DNA of 42,085 bases. Source: a virus. Lineage: Duplodnaviria > Heunggongvirae > Uroviricota > Caudoviricetes. The notes under the pieces are model-generated. The model saw only the letters and a program-made list of their open reading frames with translations. It made no database searches and was not told the DNA's origin. Shown piece by piece: positions 4,513-32,541 of this stretch. Numbering within the stretch: position 1 is the first letter of the stretch; the number at the start of each line of letters is the position of its first letter. The stretch is from positions 1-42,085 of the IMG/VR virus record IMGVR_UViG_3300037421_000080; one strand, written 5' to 3'. A program made the position numbers and the translations under genes.

Positions 4513-5366
4513 TGTCTGGGGGTTCTCTCTACGCCCAGAACGTCACCGCCGTGGGTTGGGTGGGGAACACCGTCCCCAGCGACCTTCCAGGTAACAAAGG
4601 CATCGTGGAGCTGCCTACTTCCGACTGCTCTAACCCTGGCATCGTGGTGGGGGCAGCCCTTGCCGGCCAGCGTCCCATCTACATCATTCGCTACCAAGGC
4701 TTCCTCTGGTACAATCTAGCTACCTTGGTCAACTACGCCGCCAAGAGCAAGGAGATGTGGAAGACGCCATGCCCCATCTTCATCCGTGCTCTGGCGATGG
4801 AGGGCGGGATGGGGCCGGTTGCCGGGAACCTGCACCACTCGATGGCGATGCGGATGCCGGGAATCAAGGTGGCTGCCCCCATGACTCCGGGAGAGTGGAA
4901 GCAAGTGTGGGACGAGTTCATGGTGGGGGACGACCCGGTTCTTTGCAGCGAGAGCCGCCTGAGCTTTGGGATTGACTACGAGATGGGGGGTGAATATGTG
5001 CCAGGGGCCAAGGTGACGATTTTTGCTATTGGGACGGCTAGGTTGAGTACGGAGCGGAATTGCCATCTCGATGTGCCTTGCAACTTATTTGAAGTAGTAT
5101 GGCTAAAGCCCAGCAGGTTTCCGGATGGAGCTATTCGCTCGTTGAAAGGAAGCGAGTTCGGCGTCGTAGTGGATGGCGACTATGAGACCTGCGGGGCGTC
5201 CTGATCGTTGGCCTACGAGCTGATGCACCTGTCGGGCAAGCCGGTCTACGCCTTCGGGCTGGGGGGCCGGACGGCGGGGTTCTCGGAGGATATGGATAAC
5301 AAGACACCTTCTGCCAAAAGGATCGTGGAGTTCGTTCGCTCCTGCACGAAGGAAAACCATTTATGA
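4464..5366 (+). CDS. TPP-dependent dehydrogenase E1 beta / transketolase-C-like subunit with an in-frame TGA at 5202-5204
   Basis: ELPTSD, GAALAGQRPI, PGIKVAAP and VVVDGDYETCG motifs. The same frame continues for 53 codons past the TGA with plausible C-terminal sequence and ends in an ATGA overlap with the next gene. Confidence 0.8.
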
Positions 5367-6121
5367 GTTTGGCAATATTTATTTCCTATTGTGGGGACCA
5401 TCTGAAGGCCGTTGCCCCATACGGATTTGAAGCGGCATCCGGATCAACTCCAGGCAGTGCATATCTGCCAGCTTCTTTGCACGCCAGGATGCTGGAGGAC
5501 ACGGTAAAATATCTGTATACCGATTGCACTTGCACCTCCGTGAATGCCGCGACATTTATTTGTGCATCGAGGTTCCGGGGGTTTGATGTGGAGGATCCAG
5601 GAGAGAGAAAGCGCCTATGGGAAATATCCCGCTTTGCCAGGTTCGTCACGACTTCCAAAATGCTCAATCATACGGATGGGGCTTGCTGGGCAATTGGTAT
5701 GGCTATTGAGGCAGCATCAGAGCTAGGGTTTGAGCGCATGATCTTCACAGCGGAGGATGTCATTCTTCCCAGAGGACTTGTTGCAAAGGTGGCGGAGCAT
5801 TTACTGTCATCTGATTATTGCGGCACTATCTGGGGAAACTCCAAGGAGAATTTGAATGCTCAAGTTTTCGGCTGTCGGGTAGAGCCATTTGCAAAGCTGT
5901 TTCCTGCCTATAAGAATACCAGCCTAGCGCAGGATGACGAAGGGGTTCCTATAATCGACGTGGAAGTGTGCCTGCGAAGACTGGTCAGGGAGAACAGGCT
6001 GCGGGAGAGGCTGATGGATGCTCCGTGCTATATGCACACACACAACCCCCAGGACCACCACAGAATAATACGTCACCAGCTGGGGGCTGGGGCCTGCCAG
6101 TTGCTAAGGATTGAGGAATGA
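5363..6121 (+). CDS. Hypothetical protein, possibly GT-A-fold-like
   Basis: Coupled to both neighbours by ATGA overlaps; MIFTAEDVIL resembles a DxD-type strand. The function call is weak. Confidence 0.55.
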   Translation: MSLAIFISYCGDHLKAVAPYGFEAASGSTPGSAYLPASLHARMLEDTVKYLYTDCTCTSVNAATFICASRFRGFDVEDPGERKRLWEISRFARFVTTSKMLNHTDGACWAIGMAIEAASELGFERMIFTAEDVILPRGLVAKVAEHLLSSDYCGTIWGNSKENLNAQVFGCRVEPFAKLFPAYKNTSLAQDDEGVPIIDVEVCLRRLVRENRLRERLMDAPCYMHTHNPQDHHRIIRHQLGAGACQLLRIEE

Positions 6122-6810
6122 CTACCGCTGAGTACGTCGATCTGTTTAGGGATTGCCAGAAGGAGGATCTTCGCGAGCGGGACTATCTGCATCTCCTCCT
6201 CTCTCGCATGAGCTTCAACACATGGAGCAATGCTCATCCATCGGGGCAGGACGATCCCATTATAGAGGAGCATGGTCTATGCATGTCGCAGTACCCTTCC
6301 CAGTTTGCATCATATCTGCTCCATGTGCTTGGACTCGATCTTCCTATCAAGACTTACATCGAGTTGGGTGTGGATAAAGGAGGATCGTTCGTCGCCACGG
6401 TGGAGTTTTTCAGGCATTTTAACGGAGAGATACGAGCGACTGGAGTAGACCCATTAGGGATTCATCCGAACTTGGTGGAATATGGTCATCTACAGAGATT
6501 CACCTATGTTCAGCGATCCTCCACGGATCCAGAGTTCAAGAGATCCCTCTCGAATCAAAAGTTTGACCTATGCTTCATCGACGCTGTCCACGACTATGCG
6601 AGCGTATCCCACGACTTCGGTTTGATGGCCGACTATGCTCGAATCATTGCCTTCCACGATGTATGCGGCCCTGTGACCCCAGGCTCTTGCCAGCTGTGGT
6701 CTGAGATCAAGAGCAAATTCCCGATACGGTGCCATGAATGCGTTGAGCAATACTACTCGCACACCAAACGCTTTGGCATCGGTGTTTTTGTGAACGACTA
6801 TCGGCTGTGA
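6118..6810 (+). CDS. Class I SAM-dependent methyltransferase (Methyltransf_24-like)
   Basis: YIELGVDKGGS, GVDP, DLCFIDAVHDY and IAFHD motifs. Confidence 0.85.
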   Translation: MTTAEYVDLFRDCQKEDLRERDYLHLLLSRMSFNTWSNAHPSGQDDPIIEEHGLCMSQYPSQFASYLLHVLGLDLPIKTYIELGVDKGGSFVATVEFFRHFNGEIRATGVDPLGIHPNLVEYGHLQRFTYVQRSSTDPEFKRSLSNQKFDLCFIDAVHDYASVSHDFGLMADYARIIAFHDVCGPVTPGSCQLWSEIKSKFPIRCHECVEQYYSHTKRFGIGVFVNDYRL

Positions 6811-6823
6811 AAGGAGCCTCGGC

Positions 6824-8668
6824 ATGGTTGAGCTAGCCGTAGTCAAATCCCAGAAGCACTACAACCACGTCTACGAGGCGAACGAGGCGACGGACGAGAT
6901 TCTGTCTGCCCTGACCCGCAAGATCGAGAAGGTATTCGGCGGCCGTCCCTGCAAGCGGATCTTGATGGTCCAGTGCCCGCAGATCAAGCAGGAGATATTC
7001 CATTGGGAGAACGCACGCCTCCGCCGCTACCCCTGCTTCCCGCCCTACGGTCCCGGCCTCCTCGTCCGAGTGCTGGAGCAGAACGGATACATTGCCGATC
7101 TAATCAACCTAGACTACGAGGTGATCGACCATGCCCATCGGACCCCCTGCGAGTATTTCCAGTACGATGTCTGGAAGCCGATACTTTCCACCGCTATCCA
7201 AAGCTTCAAGCCGCATCTGATCGGTGTCAGTTGCATGTTCAACAACAGCCACTCCGGGCTCAAGGACGTGGTCTCTTTCGCAAAGACATGCTTCCCCAAC
7301 ATCCCCGTTGTGGCAGGGGGCGTTCACATATCCCTGACCACGGACCAGGTTCTGGAGGACATCCCCCAGCTCGACTTCGCCATGCTTTACGAGAGCGACC
7401 AGAGCTTCATCAACTTTCTCGATGTCGTGAATGGTAAGCGATGCCCCGAGGAGTTGGCTCAGATCGCCACGGTTGATGATGACAGGATTATCAAACTGAC
7501 CAAGCGCCTTCTACCAGAAGATCTCCCCTACTCGCCCGATTACAAGGAACTGCCGATAGCGAAGTACGCCTCCGTGGGCAAGATCGGGGCCTACACCTTC
7601 CTGCGGCCCGAGGGCACTCCTGCCGCTACAGTCCTCTCCGCTCGTGGCTGCCGCGCCAAGTGCAGCTTCTGCTCCGTCCGCAGTGTATACGGGCCGGGTG
7701 TCCGGGTGCGGGACTATGTCGAAGTAGTGGACGAGGTGGAGCGGCTCCACAAGGTCTACGGCATCAAGCACATCATGTGGCTAGACGATGACCTGTTCTA
7801 CAACGCCCGGCGGGCTGTGGAGATGTTCGAGGAGCTAGCCTCCAGGAAGTTGAGGATCACATGGGACGCTTCTAACGGCATCATCGCCGCTGCGTTGACG
7901 GAGAGGCTGCTGAAAGCGTGCGAGGATTCCGGGTGCATCGGATTCAATTTGGGTATCGAGTCGGGCAACCCCCAGATGCTTCTGGAGATGAAGAAGCCGG
8001 GTACGGTTGAGACGTTCCGGCGAGCGGCAAAGTTGCTGGAGAAGGCTCCGTCCATTTTTGTGAAGGGATTCCTCGTTATCGGCTTCCCCAACGAGACCCT
8101 CCAGATGATGCAGGATACGATCAATCTATGCCTGGAGCTGGGATTGGATTGGTATCCAATCCAGATTTTGACCCCCATGCCGGGGACGCCCGTGTTCCAA
8201 TTGATGCAGGACCAAGGCATTCTGGGAGACATCCCCACCACGGTGCTAGGGAAGGCACGTTCGTTCACGGTCGGGGCCACGGGCAGTCTCGGTATGCGGG
8301 AGCGGGCTGAGAAGGAGCAGGCCAGGGACTTCAAGAACATCTTCTCCGGCGACCTGTCCCGCATCCCGGATAGATCCGAAATGGAAGACATCTACTTCGC
8401 GATGGACCATGAGATCAACTACAAGTCGATCCTGACCACGACAGACAAGGCGAGGCTCATCAAGAAGCAGCTGATGCTTGAAGAGATCTGCAACAAGATG
8501 ACAAGAGAGAATGCCCTGGGCACGCTGTACTTGGCGGAGGCCGTGCGGAGGCTGGGACATAATAAAAGAGCGGATGAATTGAATCGCCTGGCGAAGCAGT
8601 ACCGAGATGAGTCCGCCTTCTGGCAGAAGCGGTTCGATGTCCTTGGATTGGATGGGTTGCTGAAATGA
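6824..8668 (+). CDS. B12-binding radical SAM enzyme
   Basis: N-terminal PPYGPGLL / PHLIGVSCMF / VVAGGVH cobalamin-binding-type region; SARGCRAKCSFC; DDDLF, LGIESG, GFLVIGFPNET. Confidence 0.9.
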   Translation: MVELAVVKSQKHYNHVYEANEATDEILSALTRKIEKVFGGRPCKRILMVQCPQIKQEIFHWENARLRRYPCFPPYGPGLLVRVLEQNGYIADLINLDYEVIDHAHRTPCEYFQYDVWKPILSTAIQSFKPHLIGVSCMFNNSHSGLKDVVSFAKTCFPNIPVVAGGVHISLTTDQVLEDIPQLDFAMLYESDQSFINFLDVVNGKRCPEELAQIATVDDDRIIKLTKRLLPEDLPYSPDYKELPIAKYASVGKIGAYTFLRPEGTPAATVLSARGCRAKCSFCSVRSVYGPGVRVRDYVEVVDEVERLHKVYGIKHIMWLDDDLFYNARRAVEMFEELASRKLRITWDASNGIIAAALTERLLKACEDSGCIGFNLGIESGNPQMLLEMKKPGTVETFRRAAKLLEKAPSIFVKGFLVIGFPNETLQMMQDTINLCLELGLDWYPIQILTPMPGTPVFQLMQDQGILGDIPTTVLGKARSFTVGATGSLGMRERAEKEQARDFKNIFSGDLSRIPDRSEMEDIYFAMDHEINYKSILTTTDKARLIKKQLMLEEICNKMTRENALGTLYLAEAVRRLGHNKRADELNRLAKQYRDESAFWQKRFDVLGLDGLLK

Positions 8669-18196: not shown

Positions 18197-18234
18197 AAGG
18201 GGGAGTGGAATAAACTACCACTCCCCCTTATTTT
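18197..18234. terminator. Probable bidirectional intrinsic terminator
   Basis: 12-bp perfect stem AAGGGGGAGTGG / CCACTCCCCCTT between convergent genes, followed by ATTTT. Confidence 0.75.
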
Positions 18235-18857
18235 ACATGGCTCCAAGCCCCGCCTTTTATAACGTTCCAAGATCCCGTTACTCCCAATTCTTTATCTATG
18301 TGGCTGATGTAATTATATTTACCAGACGCCCACATTCTACGGATTGCGCGGACTTGATCGTCGGTTAATTTAGCGTTTGGGTTTTTTACCCCTTGGACTT
18401 TCTTGGAATTGGTTCGGCCGGTTCTCTTTTTATCGGCCATGTTATCAGCGTTCGTTCCCCATCGCAGATTTAGAACGTCATTGTTTATGGGGTCGTCATC
18501 CCAGTGGAGACCACACGATTCGGGCGTTGGCTTTGGGCCGATGAATGACAATAGTACCACATGATGTATTAAAATTCCTCTTGGCGGGTATTTAGGTCCT
18601 TGTTCCTGATGAGGGTTCAGAGTTAGGTACTTACTTCTCCTTTTGAAAGTCATCTTCTGCCATTTTTCACCAAGATGGTATTTCGTTCCAGCTCCATTAC
18701 CTTTTCCCCTTTTCCCTCTGAACCATTTTGTCCATACAGATCCATCCCAGCCAACACGGTATCCAGGCATGTTGAGAAAACCCAACATTCGGTAGACTAT
18801 GTTGTTTTCGAGATCGTAGCGAAAAGCGAGACAGCCTTTACTATAATAACTGGACAT
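18228..18857 (-). CDS. Free-standing HNH homing endonuclease (NUMOD4/HNH_3-like)
   Basis: IHHVVLLSFIGPKP...LHWDDDPINNDVLNLRWGT..DN and NPNAKLTDDQVRAIR; AT-rich and inverted relative to neighbours. Confidence 0.88.
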   Translation of the reverse strand: MSSYYSKGCLAFRYDLENNIVYRMLGFLNMPGYRVGWDGSVWTKWFRGKRGKGNGAGTKYHLGEKWQKMTFKRRSKYLTLNPHQEQGPKYPPRGILIHHVVLLSFIGPKPTPESCGLHWDDDPINNDVLNLRWGTNADNMADKKRTGRTNSKKVQGVKNPNAKLTDDQVRAIRRMWASGKYNYISHIDKELGVTGSWNVIKGGAWSHVK

Positions 18858-19067
18858 GACTTTGGTCCTCCTGGAACCAAGGTTGTGTAGGGAAGGGGCC
18901 GCGACGAACGGCCTTCTTCCCGTATTGTAGCAACCTCTAGGAATAAAGTAAACTTGAATACGATGAACGATCTAAGGACCGTCGTTGGTTTCCTTTCACC
19001 AGCCGCATCAGTCCCCTATCGGAACAGTAGATGGGCTGATGCGGTTGTTCTATTTCAGGGATAGCCG

Positions 19068-20981
19068 ATGCCTGAACTGACTCTTGAGAGCCTCCCTTCT
19101 GCTGATCTGATTCGACCGGTCTACGAGAAGTCCCTCCCCTCCGCTGACTCCATTCGCTTTGCTTGCCCGGTCTGCGGTAGTGGCAGAGTGAGATCGGACG
19201 ACAAGTCCATCTGGTGTGGGGAGGGGCCGTGCCAATGGCATTCTGAAAAGTCGTTGTCCTTGGTTGGAACTATTCCCGACCACGTCCTCCGCTCCGAGAT
19301 AGAGCGGGCCGCCACCGAGACGGACACGAACCCATCCCCGGAGCAGAAGGAGAGCGGGAAATATGCCAAGGGGAAGTTCCAGATTCGTAATCTTACAGTC
19401 GCTATTGAAAATCCGAAAGGGAGTACAAGAAGCGGGGTTGACAAGTTCGGAAATCCGTGGTCGATCCAGATGCAGAGCCACTACGGGTACATCATAAAAG
19501 TGGAAGGCCAGAAAAGCCTTCAGTACGAAACTAAGGGTATGAAGGAAGGCACATGCGGAGTTGGGGAGCGAAGCGATCTGACCGGCTGCACTCCGGCTAG
19601 CGGGGAGATCAGCGCTAAGAAGGAAGGGGAACAGGAAGAAGAGGCAGAGCAGAAGGATAAGAAGGGAGAAAGCACTCCTCCAATAAAACAGACCATGTCG
19701 GACGAGGAGGTGATCCATGATTCCTGGATGGACTCCTTCCGGATGAGCGTGACTGCTTACAGCAATGACAAGGACAGGAGGTTGGGTGAAGCTCCTATAG
19801 GCGACTTGCTGAGAGCTTTGGATATGAAAGCTGAAGGCAAGCTCCCAAGCATCAAGTTCACGGACAAGTACAAGAAGGTGGAGGACATTCGATTTGACTC
19901 CCAGGGGAATTCCCTCCCCTATGAAAAATCTGGACTACGGACATTAGGCATCGACTACAAAACAATGTCGAACAAGGAGCTGTACGAAGCACTGCAAAAG
20001 AACGGACTGATAGAAGAGTACCCGAGCGAGGAAGGGTCGTCGTTTCATGTTATTGGAATAGACGCTAATGTGGTCCTGAAGAAGGCTACCCCAGAGGAGA
20101 GGTCGAAACTGATTCCCTACTTCGCAAAGCAATTAGCCAAGTACGATGGTAAGGACGGCGCTAGAAGCTATATCTTATCGCTAGGATCCTACGGTGGCGC
20201 CAGCTTGACGCCCGATGAGAAAAAGGTGTGGGCGGACAGCATTGAGGATGAGGCTGGCGGTGCACCACTAAAGACCAAGTTTGATGAAGATGACGGAAAA
20301 GATGGTATCGACTACGATTCATCCCTAACGGTTGCTAGGATCGGTGCCTGGGCTCACACAAGAAATTACGATGCGTTTCTGAGCGGGATGGCAGGCAGCT
20401 GGTCAACTACTGGTAGCGGAGTCGATGCTCAGAGAGTTATGAATTCAGTAGCATCCGTTGACGTTCCTCAGAACCAGGGCAAGAGCTTTTGGTCCAAGTT
20501 CATAGGGGGCCAGCAGGAGGGGGCGGAAGCCCCCGTAAGCTTCGACAAGGAGAGGGTGAGCCAGCATCTACTGAAGCTAAAAAAGTCCACCGAGGATTTC
20601 TACAAGAAGAAGTTCGGCAAGAAGAAGGCAGACAGTTTTGACTTATCGACTAAGGAGCTAGTAGCTGTCCGGGGGGTCGGTGGCAAGATTGCTGCATATC
20701 TACCCTCTCCAGTCGAGTCGTGGTCAGCGGACAAGTCCACAGCAAATAGGTTTGGGAAGCAGATGGCCAAGAAGGAAGGGGAGTTCTACAGCTCAGGCCC
20801 AAAATACTTCACAGTTCTTCGGACCAAAGTGACTTACGCTGATGTGCTTTTCAGCTACGAAACAATGAAGGATGTCCCCGGCTGGCCCGTCGAGAAGCGA
20901 TTGAAAGGCAAGAAGGAGTTCGTGCTCTTCGGCGGCTCCTTGCAAAATACAGAAGCGGAGGTTTTCCATGTCTCTCGTTAA
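19068..20981 (+). CDS. Polyvalent protein 1: N-half of InPase-like domain + unknown domain + C-terminal ADP-ribosyltransferase-like domain
   Basis: PSPEQKESGKYAKG..IENPKGSTRSG..W..HYGYI is the InPase N-half. AVRG..ESWSADKSTANRF..KEFVL gives an R-S-E ART layout. Confidence 0.7.
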   Translation: MPELTLESLPSADLIRPVYEKSLPSADSIRFACPVCGSGRVRSDDKSIWCGEGPCQWHSEKSLSLVGTIPDHVLRSEIERAATETDTNPSPEQKESGKYAKGKFQIRNLTVAIENPKGSTRSGVDKFGNPWSIQMQSHYGYIIKVEGQKSLQYETKGMKEGTCGVGERSDLTGCTPASGEISAKKEGEQEEEAEQKDKKGESTPPIKQTMSDEEVIHDSWMDSFRMSVTAYSNDKDRRLGEAPIGDLLRALDMKAEGKLPSIKFTDKYKKVEDIRFDSQGNSLPYEKSGLRTLGIDYKTMSNKELYEALQKNGLIEEYPSEEGSSFHVIGIDANVVLKKATPEERSKLIPYFAKQLAKYDGKDGARSYILSLGSYGGASLTPDEKKVWADSIEDEAGGAPLKTKFDEDDGKDGIDYDSSLTVARIGAWAHTRNYDAFLSGMAGSWSTTGSGVDAQRVMNSVASVDVPQNQGKSFWSKFIGGQQEGAEAPVSFDKERVSQHLLKLKKSTEDFYKKKFGKKKADSFDLSTKELVAVRGVGGKIAAYLPSPVESWSADKSTANRFGKQMAKKEGEFYSSGPKYFTVLRTKVTYADVLFSYETMKDVPGWPVEKRLKGKKEFVLFGGSLQNTEAEVFHVSR

Positions 20982-21183
20982 GATCATCTATCCCGAGACC
21001 GAAGAAGAGAAAGAAGAGGCGACCCAACTTTACGAGTCAGGTAAGGCAGCTTCTGGGGAGGACATCCAGCAGGGGGAGGAAGATGCTGTTGATGAGGCGC
21101 CGAAGGAGGAGACAGAAGAGCTAAAGCCCACTCCTCCGAAGATCGGCCCCTCCCCCTTTGCCAATCGGAGCAAGCCAGAATGA
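20968..21183 (+). CDS. Small acidic protein ending in the PKIGPSPF linker
   Basis: Overlaps the ART ORF end; very Glu-rich; ATGA-coupled to the next ORF. Confidence 0.65.
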   Translation: MSLVKIIYPETEEEKEEATQLYESGKAASGEDIQQGEEDAVDEAPKEETEELKPTPPKIGPSPFANRSKPE

Positions 21184-24100
21184 TCGGGCCCAAGTTCAAG
21201 CCTAAAGGCAATGATGGGGACATGGTAGACGTTTTCATCGGCCCCCACCCCGAGTCCGATCTCGTCTTTATCGTGGACCAGATCGACCCCAACACCAACC
21301 AGTTCGACGAGCACAAAGTCCTCATCGGCTGGGAGAACGAGCAGACCGCCAGGGCCGGCTACCTCGCCAACTATGACATCGACTGGAAGGGCTTCGGTGG
21401 CATCACGGCGATGGGGTGGGACGAGTTCACGGAATGGCTCAAGACGGGGACGGGAGATCCAGCAGTGGAAGAGAAGCCCCCTATCATGCCTTCTGTGGTT
21501 GACTTCCACCCCCCCGATCCGATGACCGGAGAACCACAGGAGAAATCCTTGAAAGGTAAATTCCACAAGCCCGAGAACTACGATAGGATCAGAGACCTTC
21601 CAGATGGCAGAGAGTTCTGGGCAGGGGCGAACGATTGGGAGTGCGGCTGGTCCAGGGCTTGGATTCAGGGCAAGGGCCAGAAGGTCGGGTACGGGCATGC
21701 TCCTCCCGAGAAGTGGATCGAGATAGACCACAGCAAATGTCCCGGATGCAAAGGAGAGAACAGCACAGGGGAAGTGAAGAAAGAAGACGAACAAGCGTGC
21801 ATCAGCTTTGCCAAGGAGCAAGCGGAGCAATGGCTCAAGTCCCAGACCGAGAAAGCCATGTCCGCCCTCTCCGAGACCTCCGGCGGTGCCCTGGTCCCTC
21901 CCGCCCAGCAAGGACCTCTGATCAAGATGAAGAGGAACAGAGGATTCATAGCGGACGCGAAGGGGCTGATGGCGGTGCGGAGGAAGTATCACGTATCTCC
22001 GGAGCATCGGCGTCTGTGTGAGAGCCAAGGGAAGCCGAACGGAACAACTGCTGATGGGACCGGATACGGAGATGGCGGGAGCACGCCCTATAACAAAAGC
22101 ACCTGCACCCCCGGTCACAATCCCGAGCGGGATGGCTGCTCGAAAGAGACGGACGAGGAGTGGAACGCCAGAATGGATCGAGAGGAGAAGGAGCAGAAGA
22201 AAAGAGATGAGCAGGCCCGTCGGGACCAGGGGCCAAGGCGCAGGGTGCAACACGGCACGTGGAGACAGACAGAGCCTCAGCTCGGTGCAATGAATCGGCA
22301 TACTCAGTATGGTGATGAGAAGTCTATCTCCGAGGGTATACAGTCCGTTGCTTCTTTCTTGGCACGCAGATGGGCTGCACTAGAAGAACGTTACGGCCGA
22401 CGTGCTGCACTTACGATGGCGGTCGCCTCCGTCGTCAGCTTCCCCGTGCCGTTCAACATCACGGCCATCGTCGCTGCCGCAGAGGCAATCCGGGGTGTCT
22501 CCGGCTACTTCTCCAAATCTTTCTCGAACTCTTACCTCGGCAGCATCAAGCCTAGGGTGCAGGTGTCGGAGTCACTCCTGTACCGGACGAAGAAGAAGTC
22601 TCTTTCCACCGTCAAGGAGCTATCCACCGGCCCCAAGAGCCACGAGGGGGAGGCGTGCGAGTCTGGGTGGTCCGCCTCCCGGACGGGCTGCATCCCCGCC
22701 AAGCAGGGGTCCTCTGCAAAGCGTCCTAGCGTCCCTCAGAGCCCGTTCAAGGCTAGAAACGGGAATAATCCTCCTAAACAGGTCCAGACGCGTTCTGGCA
22801 CGCCCCAGGAGCCTTCTAAGGACTACGACGATGCCATGGATCGCTGGTTGAAGCCGGAGGAGCGTTCCTCCTGGCAGGAATCCGGCGATACGCCGTTCAA
22901 AGTGACCGATAAGAACGGCAAGGTGGTCGGCTACACGCTGGATGAGAACTTCGCCGAGAAGATGGCGAAGAAGCACAGGGGGAAGTATGATTTCGACGAG
23001 GAGAAGACCCCCAAGACCCCGGAGACCAGGCACGAGCACGCCCAGGAAGGCCCACAAGCCCCTGCGAAGCCGAAAACCGACTACGCTCCTCCCCCCGAGG
23101 GAGAACGTCTCACGGAGCCACCCTGTTGTTTGTATGACCCCGACCCGAACCCCAGGCCGGGCGAGGTAGCGAAGTACAGCCGGGTAGGCGTGCCGGCAGA
23201 CCAAAGTCCGCCCCCTCCGCGTGAAATACCCAGATTGCCCAACTTGACTGAGAAGGAGCGGAAGGCGGAGACGGACTTCGCGGAGGCATATCTGGCGGAC
23301 CCGGACGGGGTGGTGGAAGAATTGAACAAGCGGCGGAACAAGGTGGTAGGCAAGGACGAGAACGGGAATCCAAAGTACCAGATCGGAGATGGGCCGAATG
23401 TCTTCTCGACCGACGATGCCAAGGTGCTGAGCCCTGACTACAACCCACAGGGAGTGAGTGAGGATGAGAACAAGAACGCACGTGGGACGTTCAATACACC
23501 GTTGCACCAGACGGCGAATGCTATAGCCAAGCGAGCCTTCTTGAGTTATCTTGATACTCTCCCGGAGGACAAGAAGACCGTTCTTGTGACTGCCGGTGGT
23601 TGTGCGAGTGGAAAGTCTTTTGCGTGTTCCAAAGTCGCGAAGGTTTCCAATCTGGTGAAGTCCGTCGGGGCCGTCTGGGATGCTGCCGGGGAGGCAAATT
23701 CCACCGAAAATTCCTGGATCCTCGACGAGTGCAAGAAGCGGGATATCGTTCCCACGTTCGTGTTCGTGAACGCCAATCCCAATGAGACGTGGGAGAACCC
23801 GAAGCGTGGCGTTGTACAGCGGGCCAACGTGCAGGGTCGGATGGTTGATCACACTCTTTTTAGCGAAAGTTACAGCCTCGGTGCGAAGAACTTCGACGCC
23901 TTCCACAAGGCCCACAAGGACGATGCTGAGTTCTTCATCCTGGACAACAGCGGGCCGGAGACGAAGATCCTCGACCACGTTCCTGAGAGCGCCTTGAATG
24001 TGGATGGAGATGAATTGAAGCGAAGAACTATCAAAGTGCTTCAAGAGCGTAAGGCTGATCTCCGTCCAGGAGTGGTTCGTGGTGGGTCCGTCGGCGAGAG

Positions 24101-24764
24101 AATCTGGGGTAGACCGGGAACGGAAGGCCAAAAGTCGATATTCAGCTATCAGACAAAGGCGATGAAAAAGGGAACTTGCAAGGTAGGCCAGAACCCGAAG
24201 CGAGACCACTGCTCCAAGGCAGGAGAAGAGTTCATCTCCGAGATGGGCAAGATACAAGAGGCAGTGGACAAGAAGAAGCAGAGTGGTGACGAACCCACTT
24301 CCGACGTCGCCAGTGACATGGACAAGATGTTGAAACAGGGAATCGGCATAGGTGGGGATGTATACAACAATGATCCGAAGGCGAAATACCACACTCCCAT
24401 CGAGTACGTCTTGGCGGAAGGGCAGAAGTTCACAGGATCACCACTCCCTCCTGATATATCGCTGGGGACGGTGAAGGAATGCTTCCGCAACGCGACTTTG
24501 CTAGTGATCGAGAACCCCGGTTGGAAGTATGCCGAAGGCTTTGCTATGCCCCCCAATCTGCTCCCTGTCCTTCATGGATGGTGCGTTACACCGGAAGGGA
24601 AAGTAATAGACAACACCTTTCGAGACCCCGAGAAGTGCGCCTATCACGGCGTGGTATACGACCGGGATAAGTTCATCAAGCACATGTACAAGGCTAAATT
24701 CTACGGGCTGCTCGGCGGCAGAAATAAAGACGCCGTGCAGATCCTGGCAAGAGGTGGGTTATGA
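21180..24764 (+). CDS. Polyvalent protein 2: C-half of InPase-like domain, capsid-arm-like segment, zeta-like P-loop domain, Cys-His-Asp (transglutaminase/papain-like) domain
   Basis: GNDGDMVDVFIGP..DQ..FDEHKVLIG..YLANY..W; TAGGCASGKS..VWDAAG; ECFRNA..YAEG..LHGW..VIDNT. Confidence 0.72.
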   Translation: MIGPKFKPKGNDGDMVDVFIGPHPESDLVFIVDQIDPNTNQFDEHKVLIGWENEQTARAGYLANYDIDWKGFGGITAMGWDEFTEWLKTGTGDPAVEEKPPIMPSVVDFHPPDPMTGEPQEKSLKGKFHKPENYDRIRDLPDGREFWAGANDWECGWSRAWIQGKGQKVGYGHAPPEKWIEIDHSKCPGCKGENSTGEVKKEDEQACISFAKEQAEQWLKSQTEKAMSALSETSGGALVPPAQQGPLIKMKRNRGFIADAKGLMAVRRKYHVSPEHRRLCESQGKPNGTTADGTGYGDGGSTPYNKSTCTPGHNPERDGCSKETDEEWNARMDREEKEQKKRDEQARRDQGPRRRVQHGTWRQTEPQLGAMNRHTQYGDEKSISEGIQSVASFLARRWAALEERYGRRAALTMAVASVVSFPVPFNITAIVAAAEAIRGVSGYFSKSFSNSYLGSIKPRVQVSESLLYRTKKKSLSTVKELSTGPKSHEGEACESGWSASRTGCIPAKQGSSAKRPSVPQSPFKARNGNNPPKQVQTRSGTPQEPSKDYDDAMDRWLKPEERSSWQESGDTPFKVTDKNGKVVGYTLDENFAEKMAKKHRGKYDFDEEKTPKTPETRHEHAQEGPQAPAKPKTDYAPPPEGERLTEPPCCLYDPDPNPRPGEVAKYSRVGVPADQSPPPPREIPRLPNLTEKERKAETDFAEAYLADPDGVVEELNKRRNKVVGKDENGNPKYQIGDGPNVFSTDDAKVLSPDYNPQGVSEDENKNARGTFNTPLHQTANAIAKRAFLSYLDTLPEDKKTVLVTAGGCASGKSFACSKVAKVSNLVKSVGAVWDAAGEANSTENSWILDECKKRDIVPTFVFVNANPNETWENPKRGVVQRANVQGRMVDHTLFSESYSLGAKNFDAFHKAHKDDAEFFILDNSGPETKILDHVPESALNVDGDELKRRTIKVLQERKADLRPGVVRGGSVGERIWGRPGTEGQKSIFSYQTKAMKKGTCKVGQNPKRDHCSKAGEEFISEMGKIQEAVDKKKQSGDEPTSDVASDMDKMLKQGIGIGGDVYNNDPKAKYHTPIEYVLAEGQKFTGSPLPPDISLGTVKECFRNATLLVIENPGWKYAEGFAMPPNLLPVLHGWCVTPEGKVIDNTFRDPEKCAYHGVVYDRDKFIKHMYKAKFYGLLGGRNKDAVQILARGGL

Positions 24765-25912
24765 AAAGGGAATCTCCTCCGGAACCGATCCTCGGCATGC
24801 CGATAAGCGGCGAAGACGAGGAGCTTATCCGCCATCTGCTGAAAGGCAGTGTCAGTATTCCCCGAGTCGGGCCTTCCCCTTTCGCCAGGGGCAAGTCCTT
24901 GTCGTACCGAACCAAGGATGTCGGAAGCCATCAAGGCGAGCCCTGCCAACCCGGCTGGACGAAGGAGGGCACCGGCTGCATTCCGGCAAAGAAAGAAACC
25001 GGAGAACAAACCGCCCCTGCGGCAAATAATCAGAGGGGAAGAGCGAATAAACCTGTAGGGAACGGGTCCTTCGTTGGAAAGCAGCGGGTCGAGCCGAAGC
25101 CCCCGCAGACAGAGCGGGAGCAGGCGGCGACCCCAGCGGCCAAGGAGCCAAAGGACACGGAGGAGAAGTACAAGATCAACGGCAAGTGGACGGAGGAGCG
25201 GGTGAGGGCGGTGCACAAGCCCCTGCTGGACAAGATGCGGGAGGGGGTGAAGAAGGCCCCCGACGGCAAGCCCGTCCTCTACATGACCGGCGGCGGCTAC
25301 GGCTCCGGCAAGTCCACCCTGCTCGACATGTTCCCGGAGGTCGCCGGCTTCCCGAAGGACAAGGCCGCCGCGATGCGTGCCGACCCGGACGCCCTGAAGC
25401 AGGGAATCCCCGAGTACCTGGAGAAGGGGGAGAAGCTGGACCCGATGGCGGCCACCTACGTCCACGAGGAGTCCAGCGACATCGCCAAGACGGGGGTGAA
25501 CGGGGGCCTGGCGGACGGCTACAACGTGATCTACGACACCTCCGGGGACACGGACCCAGACAAGCTGGCGGACAAGGTGGCGAAGTTCCGCAAGCAGGGG
25601 GCAACCCGCGTCGAGGCGAACTACGCCTTCTCCGGCTCCATCGACGAGTCGCAGCGGCGGGCGGACTACCGAGCGGAGCACAGCAAGGGGGCGCGGCGGT
25701 ACGTCCCGAGGGCGCTGCTGGAGGCGAACGCCAGGGAGGTCTCCAGGTGCTGGCTGAAGTCCGCCGAGCGGGGCATCTTCGACAAGCTGACCCTCTACAG
25801 TACGGCTGGGAAGTTTGGTGATCCCCCTGTGCTGATCGCCTCTGCGGAAAACGGCAAGATCACCGTACACGACCAGAAACAGTTCGATACGTTCAAGCAG
25901 TTAGGAGAGTGA
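24761..25912 (+). CDS. Polyvalent protein 3: acidic leader + linker + zeta-toxin-family P-loop kinase
   Basis: MTGGGYGSGKST, DPDALK, VHEESS, VIYDTSG and RYVP motifs. Confidence 0.85.
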   Translation: MKRESPPEPILGMPISGEDEELIRHLLKGSVSIPRVGPSPFARGKSLSYRTKDVGSHQGEPCQPGWTKEGTGCIPAKKETGEQTAPAANNQRGRANKPVGNGSFVGKQRVEPKPPQTEREQAATPAAKEPKDTEEKYKINGKWTEERVRAVHKPLLDKMREGVKKAPDGKPVLYMTGGGYGSGKSTLLDMFPEVAGFPKDKAAAMRADPDALKQGIPEYLEKGEKLDPMAATYVHEESSDIAKTGVNGGLADGYNVIYDTSGDTDPDKLADKVAKFRKQGATRVEANYAFSGSIDESQRRADYRAEHSKGARRYVPRALLEANAREVSRCWLKSAERGIFDKLTLYSTAGKFGDPPVLIASAENGKITVHDQKQFDTFKQLGE

Positions 25913-25915
25913 CAG

Positions 25916-26107
25916 ATGGCGAAGTACGACTCGATCACGGGGGAGATGGCAGTAAAGATCACCTGTGACGTGGGGAACGGAGTGGCCCCGGAGGACAGCA
26001 AGATCGACTACGGGCCTGAGGAGCTGGCCTTCCGCAGGGAGGTGGAGGAGCAGTTCGCCGAGTATCGGAAGAAGGATCCGCAGGCGATTTTGGATGTGAG
26101 GGACTAA
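25916..26107 (+). CDS. Small acidic protein downstream of the zeta domain
   Basis: AGGAG RBS; starts 4 nt after the stop. Confidence 0.6.
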   Translation: MAKYDSITGEMAVKITCDVGNGVAPEDSKIDYGPEELAFRREVEEQFAEYRKKDPQAILDVRD

Positions 26108-26252
26108 AAAGCGATAATAGACTATCTGGAAAATGGGCCAGGCGGAAGTCATGAGCCGCTGGTTTGGTCTGGGTCGATCGTTTTAGTAGTTCTCCTTTCT
26201 TGGGCTATGCGATTGACCTAGCCTGCCCCACTAACAAGAAAGGGCCTTCCCC

Positions 26253-26753
26253 ATGATCACGTTAGACTCGTTTTCCGACCAGTCTGATGAAGATGTCGTT
26301 TATCACTTACTATGGCTTCTGAGGAAGCTGACCGCTAGGCTAGTGAAGACCTCAAATTTGAAGAAGGGGACAAAGGAAACCCAAGTTCTTTGGTTGAGGC
26401 AAAGGCTTGGGGTTATGCTGAGGCAAGAAAAGATTGATGCGCAACAAATCCAAGATCAAATCGAGGAATGGCGAGAAAGCCTGTGCAATGCTAAGGAGCA
26501 AGAACGAATTTTGAAATTGAAGGAAAAAGTTAGAGCACGTGATGGCAACAAATGCGTTTGTTGTGGAATGACTGGTGTGGAGCACCAGAAAGCATACGGG
26601 TGCAGATTACACGTTCATCGAATTCTTCCCGGAGCGTGGTATACTATGCGAGGTACGGAAACACGTTGTAGAAAATGCCATTATGGTGTTCATGGGGAGA
26701 TGAGAAGACGAGAACATCTTGCCCGAGTTCGCCACTTTGAGAAAGCTGTTTAA
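26253..26753 (+). CDS. Free-standing HNH endonuclease
   Basis: VRARDGNKCVCCG..LHVHRILPG..TRCRKCH; AT-rich. Confidence 0.8.
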   Translation: MITLDSFSDQSDEDVVYHLLWLLRKLTARLVKTSNLKKGTKETQVLWLRQRLGVMLRQEKIDAQQIQDQIEEWRESLCNAKEQERILKLKEKVRARDGNKCVCCGMTGVEHQKAYGCRLHVHRILPGAWYTMRGTETRCRKCHYGVHGEMRRREHLARVRHFEKAV

Positions 26754-26767
26754 TCTAGGAGCTAACT

Positions 26768-26968
26768 ATGCCCGACATCCCATTCCGAATGAAAGATCTA
26801 GTGGACGCACTCGCTGAGAATCTGCACCCCTCCGACGAGGAGTTGGACGCTTACGATAGGGACCAGTTCGAGAGGGAAAGCCACTGCCCGCCCCTGGATT
26901 ACGGTAAGAAGCAGAAGAAGCCGGAGCCGAAGGTAGGCCCCTCTCCATTCAAGGATCGGGGGAAGTGA
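26768..26968 (+). CDS. Small acidic protein ending in the PKVGPSPF linker
   Basis: AGGAG RBS; shares the linker motif. Confidence 0.65.
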   Translation: MPDIPFRMKDLVDALAENLHPSDEELDAYDRDQFERESHCPPLDYGKKQKKPEPKVGPSPFKDRGK

Positions 26969-26969
26969 A

Positions 26970-29900
26970 ATGATCGCCGCATCACCATTCTTGGAGCGGG
27001 CCAAGTCCCTGCGGTACTTCATCAAGTCCCCCTGCGGCGTGGGCCAGAATCCCGGGCGTGACAAGTGCACAAAAGCGGACGGGGAGGGAGGAGGAGAGAG
27101 GAAGGGACCAGAAAGCTCTATCTCAATAAATGTTTTAACTAACAATTGGCGCGGCAGAGCTATGAGTAGCCTTGTGGAGAGAGAGCACGCTCAACTGAGC
27201 GAACACCGTGGTATTCGGCAGATCCTCGACAAGTATCCTGTTAGGGTTGAGATTGGCAGTGGTGAATTAGCCGATGACGGCGGTGAGTATAATGATGGCG
27301 TTATTTTGTTGAGTACGAAGTTTAGCGAGTCTAAACGATACGGCATTGGCGGCGACGTTCGCGTTACTGACGAGAGCCAGAGCGGGGCGTTTCGTCATGA
27401 ATTTGGCCACCACCTGGCTCAAGCAACCAGAGTTCAGGATGGAGCCTTTCTAAACGCCGTGTCAGAATCAATGAAATCGGAAGGACTTAATTTTAGCAGA
27501 GGGGCGGATCGTAGATCTTGGCTTTCAAAGCACATTTCAAAGTACGCCAGCACTAATATGGAGGAGGCCTTTTGCGAAGCTTTTGCCGGCTATACGCACA
27601 AAGATTATGGCAAGAAAGGAAAGTTGCCGCCTAAAATTGAGAAAGTGATGGAGCAAATCTTGACGGGAGGAGAAAAAACATCTGAACCTGTCGAACCTTC
27701 CCCCTCCCAAAAGCTCGGCTCCCCCGCACCCCGCCCCACCCGCCAGCAGGTCCAGGGCGTTCCCGACGCCGACGTGAAGAAGCTTCTGAAGATGGTCCGG
27801 GACATCGCTGGCCGCTACAACTTCGGCTCCCTCTCCGACCTCCGCAGCAAGCTCCCCTGGCCCCGCGAGACAGCCGACAAGGTGATCGGCAAGGCCCTAT
27901 GGGATGGCTACATCACGCTGCCCCAGTCTGAGGGCCGGTCCGTGGGAGGCAAGCCCGCCCTGTCCGAGGACGAGGAGAAAGCGTCCTTCCGGGACAACCA
28001 GGAGACGGGGGGCCGAGAGCGGACCTACGCCCACATCATCCTGAATCCGGAGGGGGAGAGGAGGATCACGGAGCCAGAGGCGCCTAGGGTGGGACCGACG
28101 CCATTCGAGAACCGAGCTAAGTCACTTCCCTACTTCACCAAAGCGATGTGCGAGGTAGGCCAGACAGCGGCCAGCACGGATTGCACTCCTGCGAGCAAAG
28201 AATCCTCTCACGAAGCTCCCGTCAAGCGTCGTGCCGAGAAGGGCAAGCTGTTCGCCGCCAAGCGGGAGGGCAAGGGCAAGGAAGCCAAAGTGGTGATGGC
28301 GGACGGCTCCCCTGCCCCGCCTCACATCAAGCCCGCCATGATCCCGCCTGCGTGGAGCCGAGTGAAGGTTAGCATGGACCCGGAAGCGGACATCCTGGTA
28401 CAGGGCAAGATGAAGAACAAGAAGGGTCAGTGGGCCAACAAGACGGTCTACAACGAAAAGTACCTCCAGAACAATCAAGCGGCGAAGTTCGGCAAGATCC
28501 ACGAGGCATTGTCCAAGAAGCAGGAGATAGCCGACCAGATTCAGAGAGCGCGGAACGATCCCACCACGAAGGAGGTTGCCGACGTTGTTTGGCTTATCGA
28601 GGAACAGGGCACTCGGCCGGATAGCGGGGGCGAGGAAAAGGGTGTGGAGGAGCTGTACGGGCAGCTGATGACTGCCGACAATATAGTAACCAAAAAAGAT
28701 AAAAAAGGTAAGGTTTCGATGGCCCTCAAATTTGGGGACAGGAAGATCCCCTTGAAGGACGAGGGAGTGAAAGCCGAGCTGTCGAAGCGTATGGAGTCGG
28801 GGGATCTGGAGGACAGCACGTTCTGGCTCAAGAGCTTCGGAGCATCCTCCCTGGAGGGGCGGCACGTTGTGGAATCTCCGGACGGAGTGCGACTGCGGTT
28901 CGTCGGGAAGGAGACGAAATTCCATGATCACTTGATCCATGACTCGGAGATGGCCAAGATGCTTCTGGATAGGAAGAAGGCGGCAGGAGACAAAGGCAAG
29001 CTGTTCAACACTGACTACGGGAAGGTCTTGAAATGGACGAAGTTGTTGGACGGGGGCGGCTATACTCCGAAGGATCTCCGCACTCTTAAGGGCACCAGCA
29101 TGGCGATAGAGGAGATCAAGAACATGGGGGAGTGTTGTGACTCTCCGGAAGAGTACAAGACGGCCGTGACGCTAGTCGCAGAGAAGGTATCGAGCGTGTT
29201 AGGAAACACCCCAGATATGGCCCTTATGACGTATATCAGTCCGGAAGTGTGGAGTGTCTGGAATGGAGCGGAGGAAAACCCCATCGGCGAGAAATCTTTG
29301 GAGTACCAGACTAAAAATCAAGGTCATTGGGTTACTCTAGAGAATAGCGGAACTCATGTGTTCATCGGAGAAGGAGGTCAGATAGAAAAAGGCCCTGAGT
29401 CTCTCGTAAATCAGAGTGTTGATGACATCAAGCCAAAAGTCGGACCTAGTCCGATGAAAGATCGGCCCAAGGTGGAGCCGCCGAGAACTGAATCAAAAGT
29501 GAAGAACAAGGAGAACAATGAAAAGTTGCCTGGAATCAACAGGCCGAGCGTAGCGTTCTATGAGGAGGGGAATATCTCAGTCAAGAAACACTATCAAACT
29601 GAGTTTAGGGCTTTTTTCGGTAAGGACATAGACGAGGGGACCGTAGCCGCGATGGTTAATGCCGTTGATGGGGCTAGTGTTACAGTGGAATTCTTAGGAA
29701 ACCTTAGTTATATGAAGGCCGAGACAAGTAGAACGGGAGTTCATGCCGAAAGAACATTCTATAGAAGAGATGGAAAGGTGTTTGTTAGGAATAATTTGTT
29801 CACGATAAATCCCACTTCTCCACATAAGGGACATGGAGTCCGGCTTTTTGTGAATCAGGTTCAAGCACTACGTAACTCTGGGGTGGACCATATAGAAACG

Positions 29901-30200
29901 TATGCATCTGGAAATGGGCAAATAGAGTCGGAATACAACGGATACTACACTTGGCCTAGAATGGGTTACGATGGCGTCATGGAGGAATTTTGCTACGAGA
30001 GATTGCCCGAGGAATTGCGGCAAAAGTTGGGGAATTCTCGCAGCGTGCTGGATCTGATGGCTTTGCCGGGAGGCAAGGCGGCTTGGAAGGAATACGGAGC
30101 TTCGTTCCAAGCTAAATTCGATCTGCACGAGGGTAGCAGGAGCATGAAAGTCTTGGAAGATTATGTTGAGGAAAGGAGGCAACGTGGAGAAGTCTTTTGA
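26970..30200 (+). CDS. Polyvalent protein 4: zincin metallopeptidase + HTH-like domain + DNA topoisomerase IB + GNAT-like domain
   Basis: HEFGH..SKYASTNMEEAFCEAF (zincin). IPPAW, TRP, FVGK, KDLRT and LGNTP..TYISP (TopIB catalytic set). KGHG..NGYYTWPRMGY (GNAT-like). Confidence 0.82.
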   Translation: MIAASPFLERAKSLRYFIKSPCGVGQNPGRDKCTKADGEGGGERKGPESSISINVLTNNWRGRAMSSLVEREHAQLSEHRGIRQILDKYPVRVEIGSGELADDGGEYNDGVILLSTKFSESKRYGIGGDVRVTDESQSGAFRHEFGHHLAQATRVQDGAFLNAVSESMKSEGLNFSRGADRRSWLSKHISKYASTNMEEAFCEAFAGYTHKDYGKKGKLPPKIEKVMEQILTGGEKTSEPVEPSPSQKLGSPAPRPTRQQVQGVPDADVKKLLKMVRDIAGRYNFGSLSDLRSKLPWPRETADKVIGKALWDGYITLPQSEGRSVGGKPALSEDEEKASFRDNQETGGRERTYAHIILNPEGERRITEPEAPRVGPTPFENRAKSLPYFTKAMCEVGQTAASTDCTPASKESSHEAPVKRRAEKGKLFAAKREGKGKEAKVVMADGSPAPPHIKPAMIPPAWSRVKVSMDPEADILVQGKMKNKKGQWANKTVYNEKYLQNNQAAKFGKIHEALSKKQEIADQIQRARNDPTTKEVADVVWLIEEQGTRPDSGGEEKGVEELYGQLMTADNIVTKKDKKGKVSMALKFGDRKIPLKDEGVKAELSKRMESGDLEDSTFWLKSFGASSLEGRHVVESPDGVRLRFVGKETKFHDHLIHDSEMAKMLLDRKKAAGDKGKLFNTDYGKVLKWTKLLDGGGYTPKDLRTLKGTSMAIEEIKNMGECCDSPEEYKTAVTLVAEKVSSVLGNTPDMALMTYISPEVWSVWNGAEENPIGEKSLEYQTKNQGHWVTLENSGTHVFIGEGGQIEKGPESLVNQSVDDIKPKVGPSPMKDRPKVEPPRTESKVKNKENNEKLPGINRPSVAFYEEGNISVKKHYQTEFRAFFGKDIDEGTVAAMVNAVDGASVTVEFLGNLSYMKAETSRTGVHAERTFYRRDGKVFVRNNLFTINPTSPHKGHGVRLFVNQVQALRNSGVDHIETYASGNGQIESEYNGYYTWPRMGYDGVMEEFCYERLPEELRQKLGNSRSVLDLMALPGGKAAWKEYGASFQAKFDLHEGSRSMKVLEDYVEERRQRGEVF

Positions 30201-30351
30201 TGAACTTGAGATGGTGGTCGAACTCAAGGAGCTTCAAACTCGATTGAGGGGGATAAAGAACCCGGACGAGCGTCAGAGGACGATGGAGAAGATCGAGAAG
30301 CTGATTGAGGAAACTGGCTATGCCGAGGAACTTGGAGAGGATGTGGATTGA
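30184..30351 (+). CDS. Small acidic protein downstream of GNAT-like domain
   Basis: AAAGGAGG RBS before GTG 30184; overlaps both neighbours. Confidence 0.6.
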   Translation: MEKSFDELEMVVELKELQTRLRGIKNPDERQRTMEKIEKLIEETGYAEELGEDVD

Positions 30352-31478
30352 TGGAAATCCCCGGACTCGATGGTGTTGAAGTCTTCTTCGGTGACGCGGA
30401 GCGACCCCTGCCTAACTGGCGGGAGATCCTGCCCGAAGACGACTCAGACGGAGATGAACTCACCCCGGAGGAACGGGAGGCAGTGATCGGCATGATCGGC
30501 TTCGATCCGGCCGAGAAAGAGGAGGAGCCTACTCCGCCGAAGATCGGACCCAGTCCGTTCGCTAGCAGAAAATCTCTCAATTACAGGACTAAGGGTTGGA
30601 TCACTATCGGAGGTGAGCCTGCCCAGCACGGAGGTCGGAGCGAGCAGCACCACGGAGGCACGCCCGTCGAGCTGGACTCCAGCGGCAAGATCAAAAAAGG
30701 CCCCCAGGCTTTGAAAGGTAAGAAGCCAAGCGAGTTGAAGAAGCCAGCAGCGAAAGTCGGACCTAGCCCGATGGTGGAAAGGCCGAAGGTGGAGCCGCCA
30801 AAGACCGATACGAAGGAGGAGAAGAAGCCTGATCCAAGCAAGGCCAAAGCAAGCCTCACCGGGGAGAGAACAGAACGGGTGAAGAGTGTTCTGTCCAAGC
30901 TGTTTGGCAAGCAGAAGGACTATGGCAGCGTAATCGCCTCGATAGTAGCAGCCCCCGATGATGCCAAGGTGGATTATTACAGGGGGGAGGGCGACTCCGT
31001 AGTGATCGACATCGAGAACAAGGATTTCTTCATGTCGTGCCAGATAAACTCTGAGAACAACAAGGATGGACTCTACTTGGATGCCTTTTTTGGCAAGGCA
31101 GGCGCAAAAGGGAAGGGCGTCGGATCCCATGTGTTTGCCAACCAGGTAGAGCAGTGCCGGGCTGCTGGTTTGAAATCCATCAAGTGCTGGGCAGCAGGAA
31201 AGCCCGGCGGTGATATGAACGGCTACTATACCTGGCCTCGTATGGGATTTGACCAGGAGATAGACCCCAATACGGACTATGACTGGAAGGGGGATCCGGT
31301 CGAGAAGTTTCCGAATGCCAAGTCAGTCCAAGACATCATGAAGACGAGAGAAGGTCGGGAGTGGTGGAAGGCGAACGGAGGCAACCTGCACAATGCCAAG
31401 TTCGATCTGTCCGACGGCTCCCGTTCAATGCAAGTGTTCAATGCCTACATGGAAGAGAGGAAGGCGAGAAATGGCTGA
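30348..31478 (+). CDS. Polyvalent protein 5: acidic leader + linker + second GNAT-like domain
   Basis: PNWR..DDSD..MIGFDP leader; PKIGPSPFASRKSLNYRTK; GKGVG..NGYYTWPRMGF..FDLSDGSRSM, clearly paralogous to 29.6-30.2 kb. Confidence 0.78.
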   Translation: MMEIPGLDGVEVFFGDAERPLPNWREILPEDDSDGDELTPEEREAVIGMIGFDPAEKEEEPTPPKIGPSPFASRKSLNYRTKGWITIGGEPAQHGGRSEQHHGGTPVELDSSGKIKKGPQALKGKKPSELKKPAAKVGPSPMVERPKVEPPKTDTKEEKKPDPSKAKASLTGERTERVKSVLSKLFGKQKDYGSVIASIVAAPDDAKVDYYRGEGDSVVIDIENKDFFMSCQINSENNKDGLYLDAFFGKAGAKGKGVGSHVFANQVEQCRAAGLKSIKCWAAGKPGGDMNGYYTWPRMGFDQEIDPNTDYDWKGDPVEKFPNAKSVQDIMKTREGREWWKANGGNLHNAKFDLSDGSRSMQVFNAYMEERKARNG

Positions 31479-31881: not shown

Positions 31882-32541
31882 TCATTTTCTTTTTGTCCAA
31901 AGTTGATTACCCGCTTGGAATCCAGCGGGTCGTATTTTTGCCATTACTTTGGGTTGACAGTGGCGGAAGGTTTTGCCGTTGAGGATCATTTTGACGTTTC
32001 CGCCGGTTATTCCAAAGACCTTGGCCACTTCTTCGCAGGTCATACCGGAATCATACAAGCGATGGATCTTGGGGATGTCAGAATCTTTCAATTTCGCCCA
32101 TCCCATAGTTTCGCCGTGGCACCAAGTACCATGTCGGATTCTGTCATCCGCGTTCTCTTGGTAAGTCCCCCACCGCAAATTCTTCAAGTGATTGTTACTC
32201 GGGTTTCCATCCAAGTGTCGGCATTCCATCCCTTCCGGACAAGGACCAACGAAAGCTTCCAAGACGAGAGTGTGGATTTGACAAACACGGCTCTTCCCGT
32301 GCTTGCTGATTTTGACGGAGAAATAGCCACGTTCGACTTCTCGAAGTTTCATCATTCTTCCCGGAATGAAACGACGATTGGTTCCGATCTTGACCCACTT
32401 GCTGAGAGACTTCAACCTGCCCCAATTCGAGACTCGGTAAAAACCAATGAAGTTGGGAAGATCCCTCCAGTATTCGTTTCTACCGTCGGGATGGGTTTGA
32501 ACTTTTTGTCGGAGAAGGAATCGGGTAGAATTGTCGTACAT
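31882..32541 (-). CDS. NUMOD4-HNH homing endonuclease
   Basis: WRDLPNFIGFYRVSNWGRLKS (NUMOD4); IHTLVLEAFVG..CRHLDGNPSNNHLKNLRWGT..EN. Confidence 0.92.
   Translation of the reverse strand: MYDNSTRFLLRQKVQTHPDGRNEYWRDLPNFIGFYRVSNWGRLKSLSKWVKIGTNRRFIPGRMMKLREVERGYFSVKISKHGKSRVCQIHTLVLEAFVGPCPEGMECRHLDGNPSNNHLKNLRWGTYQENADDRIRHGTWCHGETMGWAKLKDSDIPKIHRLYDSGMTCEEVAKVFGITGGNVKMILNGKTFRHCQPKVMAKIRPAGFQAGNQLWTKRK

Follow-up and report, generated by a model that had tools for sequence, protein, structure and literature searches.

The window considered here, the first 42 kb (42,085 nucleotides) of the 136,935-bp IMG/VR phage record IMGVR_UViG_3300037421_000080 (Caudoviricetes), carries an array of large plus-strand open reading frames (ORFs) at 19068-31478; an S78 prohead protease (32655) and an HK97-type capsid gene (37344) lie downstream of it. 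In a Pfam search the array encodes virion-cargo domains, among them an inorganic pyrophosphatase (InPase), a zeta-toxin kinase, a metallopeptidase and a topoisomerase IB-like domain. At the start of the array the InPase is not a single continuous domain: it is split between two ORFs with 1701 bp between them, and the intervening DNA encodes an ADP-ribosyltransferase (ART) and a small acidic partner ORF. The features of the locus are:

19068-20981, plus strand: ORF A, 637 amino acids; Cys-rich N-terminus, InPase N-half, cassette linker and ART effector
19248-19256, plus strand: K-S-L site 5' of the InPase N-half, a candidate head-protease site (K61)
19293-19508, plus strand: InPase N-half, profile positions 2-58; ends with the YGYI strand and part of the next loop
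19504-19508, plus strand: left AAGGC copy, a 5-bp direct repeat and junction microhomology
19509-19589, plus strand: cassette head, with a K-S-L-x-Y-x-T-K linker (K149) and a C-x2-G-x7-C motif
19677-20978, plus strand: cassette body, a helical region followed by an R-S-E type ADP-ribosyltransferase
20968-21183, plus strand: ORF B, 71 amino acids, acidic; ends with the array's GPSPF linker
21180-21206, plus strand: lead peptide, the generic start of array genes, with a coupled ATG; precedes the InPase C-half
21205-21209, plus strand: right AAGGC copy of the 5-bp direct repeat
21207-21455, plus strand: InPase C-half, profile positions 56-135; DxDxxD and DEHK motifs
21543-21551, plus strand: K-S-L site 3' of the C-half (K122), with a small domain next

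Residues 92-148 of ORF A align to positions 2-58 of the PF18823 InPase profile (E 2.5e-16) and residues 9-88 of ORF C (21180-24764, 1194 amino acids) to positions 56-135 (E 2.6e-26), with 60 and 92 bits respectively against a cut-off of 26.8. The halves are complementary and leave no profile column missing, and the record as a whole has no other InPase match; both ORFs are open and co-oriented, without stops or frameshifts, as an enzyme gene split by insertion. A preliminary description of the sequence had placed the two halves in separate ORFs about 1.7 kb apart, with a linker, a further domain, an ART and a small acidic ORF between them. That arrangement is borne out (the linker bears the K-S-L and Cys motifs, the further domain is the helical region and the small ORF is ORF B) and both halves do align to one InPase profile, although the N-half ends at 19508 rather than 19499. 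A model of an intact homologue (predicted local distance difference test score, pLDDT, 93.5) matches family I pyrophosphatases (PPases; Foldseek E 1.7e-4) and places the break in a 10-residue loop running from the YGYI strand to the strand after DxDxxD, a few residues ahead of the first metal ligand. As conserved Glu, Arg and Tyr residues lie in the N-half and the aspartates and DEHK in the C-half, any InPase activity needs both. A phage portal protein of solved structure (PDB 9b41) bears an intact InPase of the PF18823 family at its C-terminus (E 1.4e-38). The same three ORFs occur on a Logan contig of SRR12659369 and on a JGI contig that is 100% identical over 7023 bp; an assembly artefact or one-off chimera is unlikely, because the split recurs in these two further assemblies, which may derive from the same or sister samples.

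The passenger is an effector with its partner. An ART-fold domain occupies approximately 20265-20978 (model pLDDT 88), with catalytic residues R535, S551 and E617 invariant in 20 homologues, the invariant motifs being R, ESW and E. Its Atlas matches are DRAT and ART clusters, and the top structural matches are nearly all of ART fold, each of them weak (Z <=4.8; Foldseek E 0.03). The 94 ART homologues found include none with an InPase half. The closest two, of 501 and 510 amino acids, are stand-alone genes in similar head arrays; they lack the InPase and have ORF B homologues after them. In five other loci (L034, L037, L038, L121 and L123) the ART has an ORF B homologue immediately behind it, such that ART and ORF B can be regarded as a natural unit. 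ORF B, whose stop codon overlaps the ATG of ORF C (ATGA), is a candidate immunity or chaperone partner. Within the insert there is no HNH or GIY-YIG match and no excess of promoters or terminators over chance, and its ends have no transposon-type terminal inverted repeats among the repeats listed. MuF-like or portal proteins occur as fusion partners of some homologues of the ART.

The linker of the cassette head recurs at 24132, 24893, 27003, 28119 and 30570, and the array as a whole reads as a succession of repeat units, each comprising a gene start (lead), a K-S-L linker, an effector, a stop and a small partner ORF that has a GPSPF linker at its end. K-S-L is strongly enriched in the head ORFs (22 observed versus 2.3 expected) and not in the other genes of the phage (3 versus 4.8); given this enrichment, and as the HK97 protease cleaves at K103/S104 (PMC10275583), these are candidate maturation sites for the head protease. 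K-S-L sites had been described as bounding both halves of the InPase: this is the case for the N-half (K61 and K149), whereas the C-half has one only downstream (K122) and begins at its own ATG.

The junctions indicate where the unit was cut. The insert, 1701 bp between the AAGGC copies, is divisible by three in length. Its deletion at AAGGC brings back a 6-residue loop, the length seen in all 74 intact viral loops, and the rejoined InPase scores 211 bits on an independent hidden Markov model (HMM; intact homologues 173-271). Circularised, the insert becomes a 501-residue gene whose K-S-L falls at position 12, just as it does in the ORF at 26970; since its joined ends make a normal array gene, the insert corresponds to one array repeat unit cut inside its own lead. 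The ART homologue P0062 likewise starts with M-I-G; the small ORF before it, to which it is coupled, ends in the same linker. L034 has the same start pattern. The coupled ATG of the C-half, to which attention had been drawn earlier, is present; as the generic array lead, it is therefore no evidence of selection for a split enzyme. In locus L037 (2123-2386) an ORF B homologue is fused directly to the small domain that in the window follows the C-half, an arrangement that would fit a local block swap. Movement of the cassette into the InPase and movement of the C-half past the cassette would give the same product and are indistinguishable. That small domain had no Atlas match, and a DNA pattern scan for it returned an unrelated locus; on sister contigs, an RRXRR/HNH (IscB-like) gene lies a short way past the end of the L037 fusion.

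The account we favour, tentatively and as nearly an even call, is insertional fission of a virion-cargo InPase by the ART-ORF B unit, with the halves most likely pairing. We infer the recombination route, and likewise packaging, cleavage, pairing and activity. The unit would have entered the InPase coding sequence in frame, in the loop between the YGYI strand and DxDxxD, most likely by mis-targeted recombination between (E/K)G codons of a linker and look-alike EG codons of the InPase loop, through a circular excision intermediate, or else an equivalent double crossover or a swap of local blocks. Having been cut within its own lead, the unit would fuse the N-half to the ART through a K-S-L site and leave the C-half with the lead's coupled ATG, whereby both halves stay translated and would be made from one operon. 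In the capsid, an HK97-type head protease would cut at K-S-L to release pieces of approximately 88 and 122 residues, and these would most likely pair as a two-chain InPase with a composite active site. A bolder extension, which we consider doubtful, would make the array unit a self-rescuing mobile cassette that supplies a protease site upstream and a start codon downstream, with the head protease freeing the halves, active enzyme rebuilt in the capsid, and the InPase loop serving as a recurrent permissive split site for effector cassette and homing nuclease alike.

That the halves form an active two-chain InPase is, on balance, slightly more probable than not. The C-half has no change at any column conserved in 90% of intact homologues and keeps the acidic catalytic motifs DxDxxD and DEHK; the N-half has three changes, a total of 3 of 33 conserved columns, and 14% of intact members have as many. 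Reassembly appears plausible from the retained acidic motif, an HMM score in the intact range and a second split in another phage. Co-folding of the halves gave a score of 0.58 against 0.00 for the best of three controls, with contacts agreeing at >=79% and partner pLDDT >=70. Of 80 solved complexes 58 reach this mark, as do 2 of 110 mismatches. This support is weak, because both mismatches (with 7 of the 80 solved complexes) score <=0.60 and split-gene halves tend to pass through resemblance to folds already solved.

What is new here is that second case: an unrelated phage, L073 (IMGVR_UViG_3300035698_007508, 4192-7725; 127 kb, with a different gene array), in which an HNH nuclease interrupts the InPase at the same loop. 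N-half, a free-standing 114-residue HNH ORF and C-half are all coupled, and the halves keep all 33 conserved columns. Among viral InPase loci 79 of 80 are intact and the other is L073; across the screens, hits were intact or merely partial in 79/80, 79/81, 78/80, 16/16 and 96/99 cases, and L073 was the only split of the same type among several hundred InPase hits, although these were top hits in overlapping sets and the rarity of splits is accordingly approximate. Pattern scans for a third split in viral and metagenome contigs, using the residues shared by the two junctions, recovered only L073 or intact domains, and all 60 InPase matches sampled from cultured phages were single pieces. A Leptospira jelokensis contig (L276:3840-4020) has a frame change near profile position 51-58, a different site, and is no such split; the change may be a pseudogene, a sequencing error or a programmed shift. 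Three N-truncated InPase proteins starting before YGY were left out of the split count. The InPase of P0052 is invaded in another way, by an intein immediately behind DEHK.

It is worth noting that a number of observations weigh against fission by the ART-ORF B unit followed by productive pairing. The AAGGC repeat is short and modest evidence, expected by chance in 1% of cases at a fixed point and 3% within the loop, and E-G and K-G codons may have produced it by coincidence; GGAAGGCCA, nine bases encoding E-G-Q, stands ahead of the K-S linker at 24132 as well. At both splits the left junction has I-I-K and the right P-x-G, a combination absent from all 171 intact loops. All three changes at 90%-conserved columns sit in the N-half, and a near-invariant loop Thr (157 of the 171 intact loops) is missing from both halves, as it is from L073. 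Third-position GC is 0.70 in one half and 0.87 in the other (p 0.014), a gap as large as that in 3% of 189 intact domains. Such a difference is easier to reconcile with an older split, or with halves of separate ancestry, than with a recent clean hop; it hints that the split has some age or that the halves stem from distinct alleles, and persistence without decay would favour function. A single-protein scan found neither an unsplit close allele nor a close relative of this InPase, the best intact relatives being <60% identical. Finally, the InPase and this ART are absent from four related phage records (capsids 66-72% identical; one complete), from which it follows that the InPase is dispensable in this phage group, and this absence counts against function. 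A cassette insertion into an existing gene is supported by the complementary halves, the stand-alone unit and its permuted ends; to call it 'direct evidence', as had been done, is too strong, because no unsplit allele was found and L073 raises an older homing-nuclease origin.

Such an origin is a real rival, given the L073 split, the shared junction residues and an HNH in this very phage, even if we consider it unlikely. A free-standing HNH homing nuclease would have split the InPase loop as in L073, the allele would have lived on as a functional two-chain enzyme, and the ART-ORF B unit would later have replaced the HNH via the linkers. The HNH in question lies in an intein of this phage (window 980-1240, in a radical-SAM-like ORF at 8-2149) and is 45% identical to that of L073 (E 4.8e-22); the GC difference between the halves also suits an older event, and the junction match at 3 of 6 free (non-canonical) positions has a chance of about 0.4%, a figure to be read with its post hoc discovery in mind. 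(An earlier marker, I-I after YGY, was dropped, as intact domains have it and only I-K is unique.) Monophyly of the two splits is not rejected (approximately unbiased test on 26 rows, p 0.27), yet the maximum-likelihood tree does not join them, placing L073 with P0057 (92/88); the two InPases are 56% identical and rank only 30th to 60th among each other's relatives, the gene arrays of the two phages differ, Pfam finds no HNH remnant in the window insert, and the targeted scans of junction residues gave no third case. The in-register repeat and the exact loop length, moreover, require no earlier element, and the L073 junctions lack an AAGGC-like repeat.

Early decay, whereby the insertion knocked out a dispensable cargo enzyme and the halves are translated from the cassette start without reassembling, seems to us comparably improbable. 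The dispensability of the InPase, the altered N-half columns and lost Thr, a break just before the first metal ligand and the rarity of splits among screened hits all speak for it; set against these are the lack of any stop or frameshift, a C-half that keeps every 90%-conserved column, a total of changes inside the intact range, the fully conserved split of L073 and a GC gap suggesting that the split is not brand new. Very improbable, by comparison, is removal of the insert by an intron, an intein, a ribosomal hop or reversible excision to yield a continuous InPase. The insert length is a multiple of three, AAGGC would permit precise excision, and inteins invade the InPase elsewhere, at a different site (P0052). 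However, 18500-22500 gave no Rfam match at E up to 1, the junctions show neither U-G nor GUGYG/AY intron ends in any register and no intein domain or termini, and the insert contains two stop codons and coupled genes and is present in three assemblies. A group I or group II intron or an intein is ruled out by Rfam, Pfam and the junction letters, and with no intein parts at either junction there is therefore no protein trans-splicing.

Around the split locus, free-standing HNH/NUMOD-type nuclease genes edge the cargo array on either side (window 18228-18857 and 31882-32541, minus strand), and an HNH-like ORF lies within it (26253-26753). A segment of ORF C (21852-21902) resembles the predicted mature N-arm of the major capsid protein (37851 onward) and also matches capsid proteins of relatives. 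Further downstream, a tail/neck-region ORF (40278-41666) appears to contain an intein and encloses a long ORF on the opposite strand (40470-41324). Outside the window, an ORF at G000 64599-65456 is by eye like Planctomycete prepilin-type (DUF1559-like) genes, which may hint at a Planctomycetota host.

The locus appears to capture virion-cargo domain shuffling in phages while it happens, with the recombination of short coding linkers as its suggested route, and indicates that a unit can land within a neighbouring domain while silencing neither half. The circularly permuted unit and the second split make it more than a pseudogene curiosity: half-domain matches in phage head loci need not be pseudogenes, and two natural splits at one loop of a PPase-fold enzyme of approximately 150 residues mark it as a possible split-enzyme reporter.

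Several known systems invite comparison. The InPase of polyvalent proteins (PF18823) is described as a virion-packaged continuous domain, without mention of a split form (Iyer et al. 2017, PMC5512222). The present case resembles it in the match of both halves to the profile, in its head-gene context and in its cargo neighbours, an ART, a zeta-toxin kinase and a metallopeptidase. Polymorphic toxins and MuF phage toxins exchange cassettes (PMC3482391, PMC5576092) and share with the array the order of an effector followed by a small coupled partner gene, as well as cassettes shuffled by recombination; here, by contrast, no MuF domain was detected, the units have K-S-L and GPSPF linkers, and the unit landed inside another cargo domain, with a putative immunity role for ORF B. 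Fractured genes, which pair split inteins with a free-standing endonuclease (PMC2677866), likewise have a host gene divided into two ORFs with a mobile gene between them, but the window junctions are without intein parts.

The closest parallel lies in phage genes-in-pieces: nrdA of Aeromonas phage Aeh1 is split by the HNH gene mobE and is active as two chains, T4 gene 39/60 is split by mobA, and gene 43 is split in phages 25 and 44RR (PMC3045599, PMC2988022). As in those cases, an insertion in the active-site region has produced two co-transcribed ORFs with new short tails, and L073, with its HNH passenger, matches the pattern exactly as a plain new member. The split in the window is not a strict member because its passenger is no homing nuclease: known phage split genes carry homing nucleases, and a nuclease-free cassette of effector and partner in that place is unusual. 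The target, too, is a dispensable virion-cargo domain rather than an essential replication enzyme, and its halves are fused to other domains, from which a protease would free them. With these differences, insertional gene fission at this locus is real, and represents a variant of phage genes-in-pieces in which an effector cassette is the passenger.

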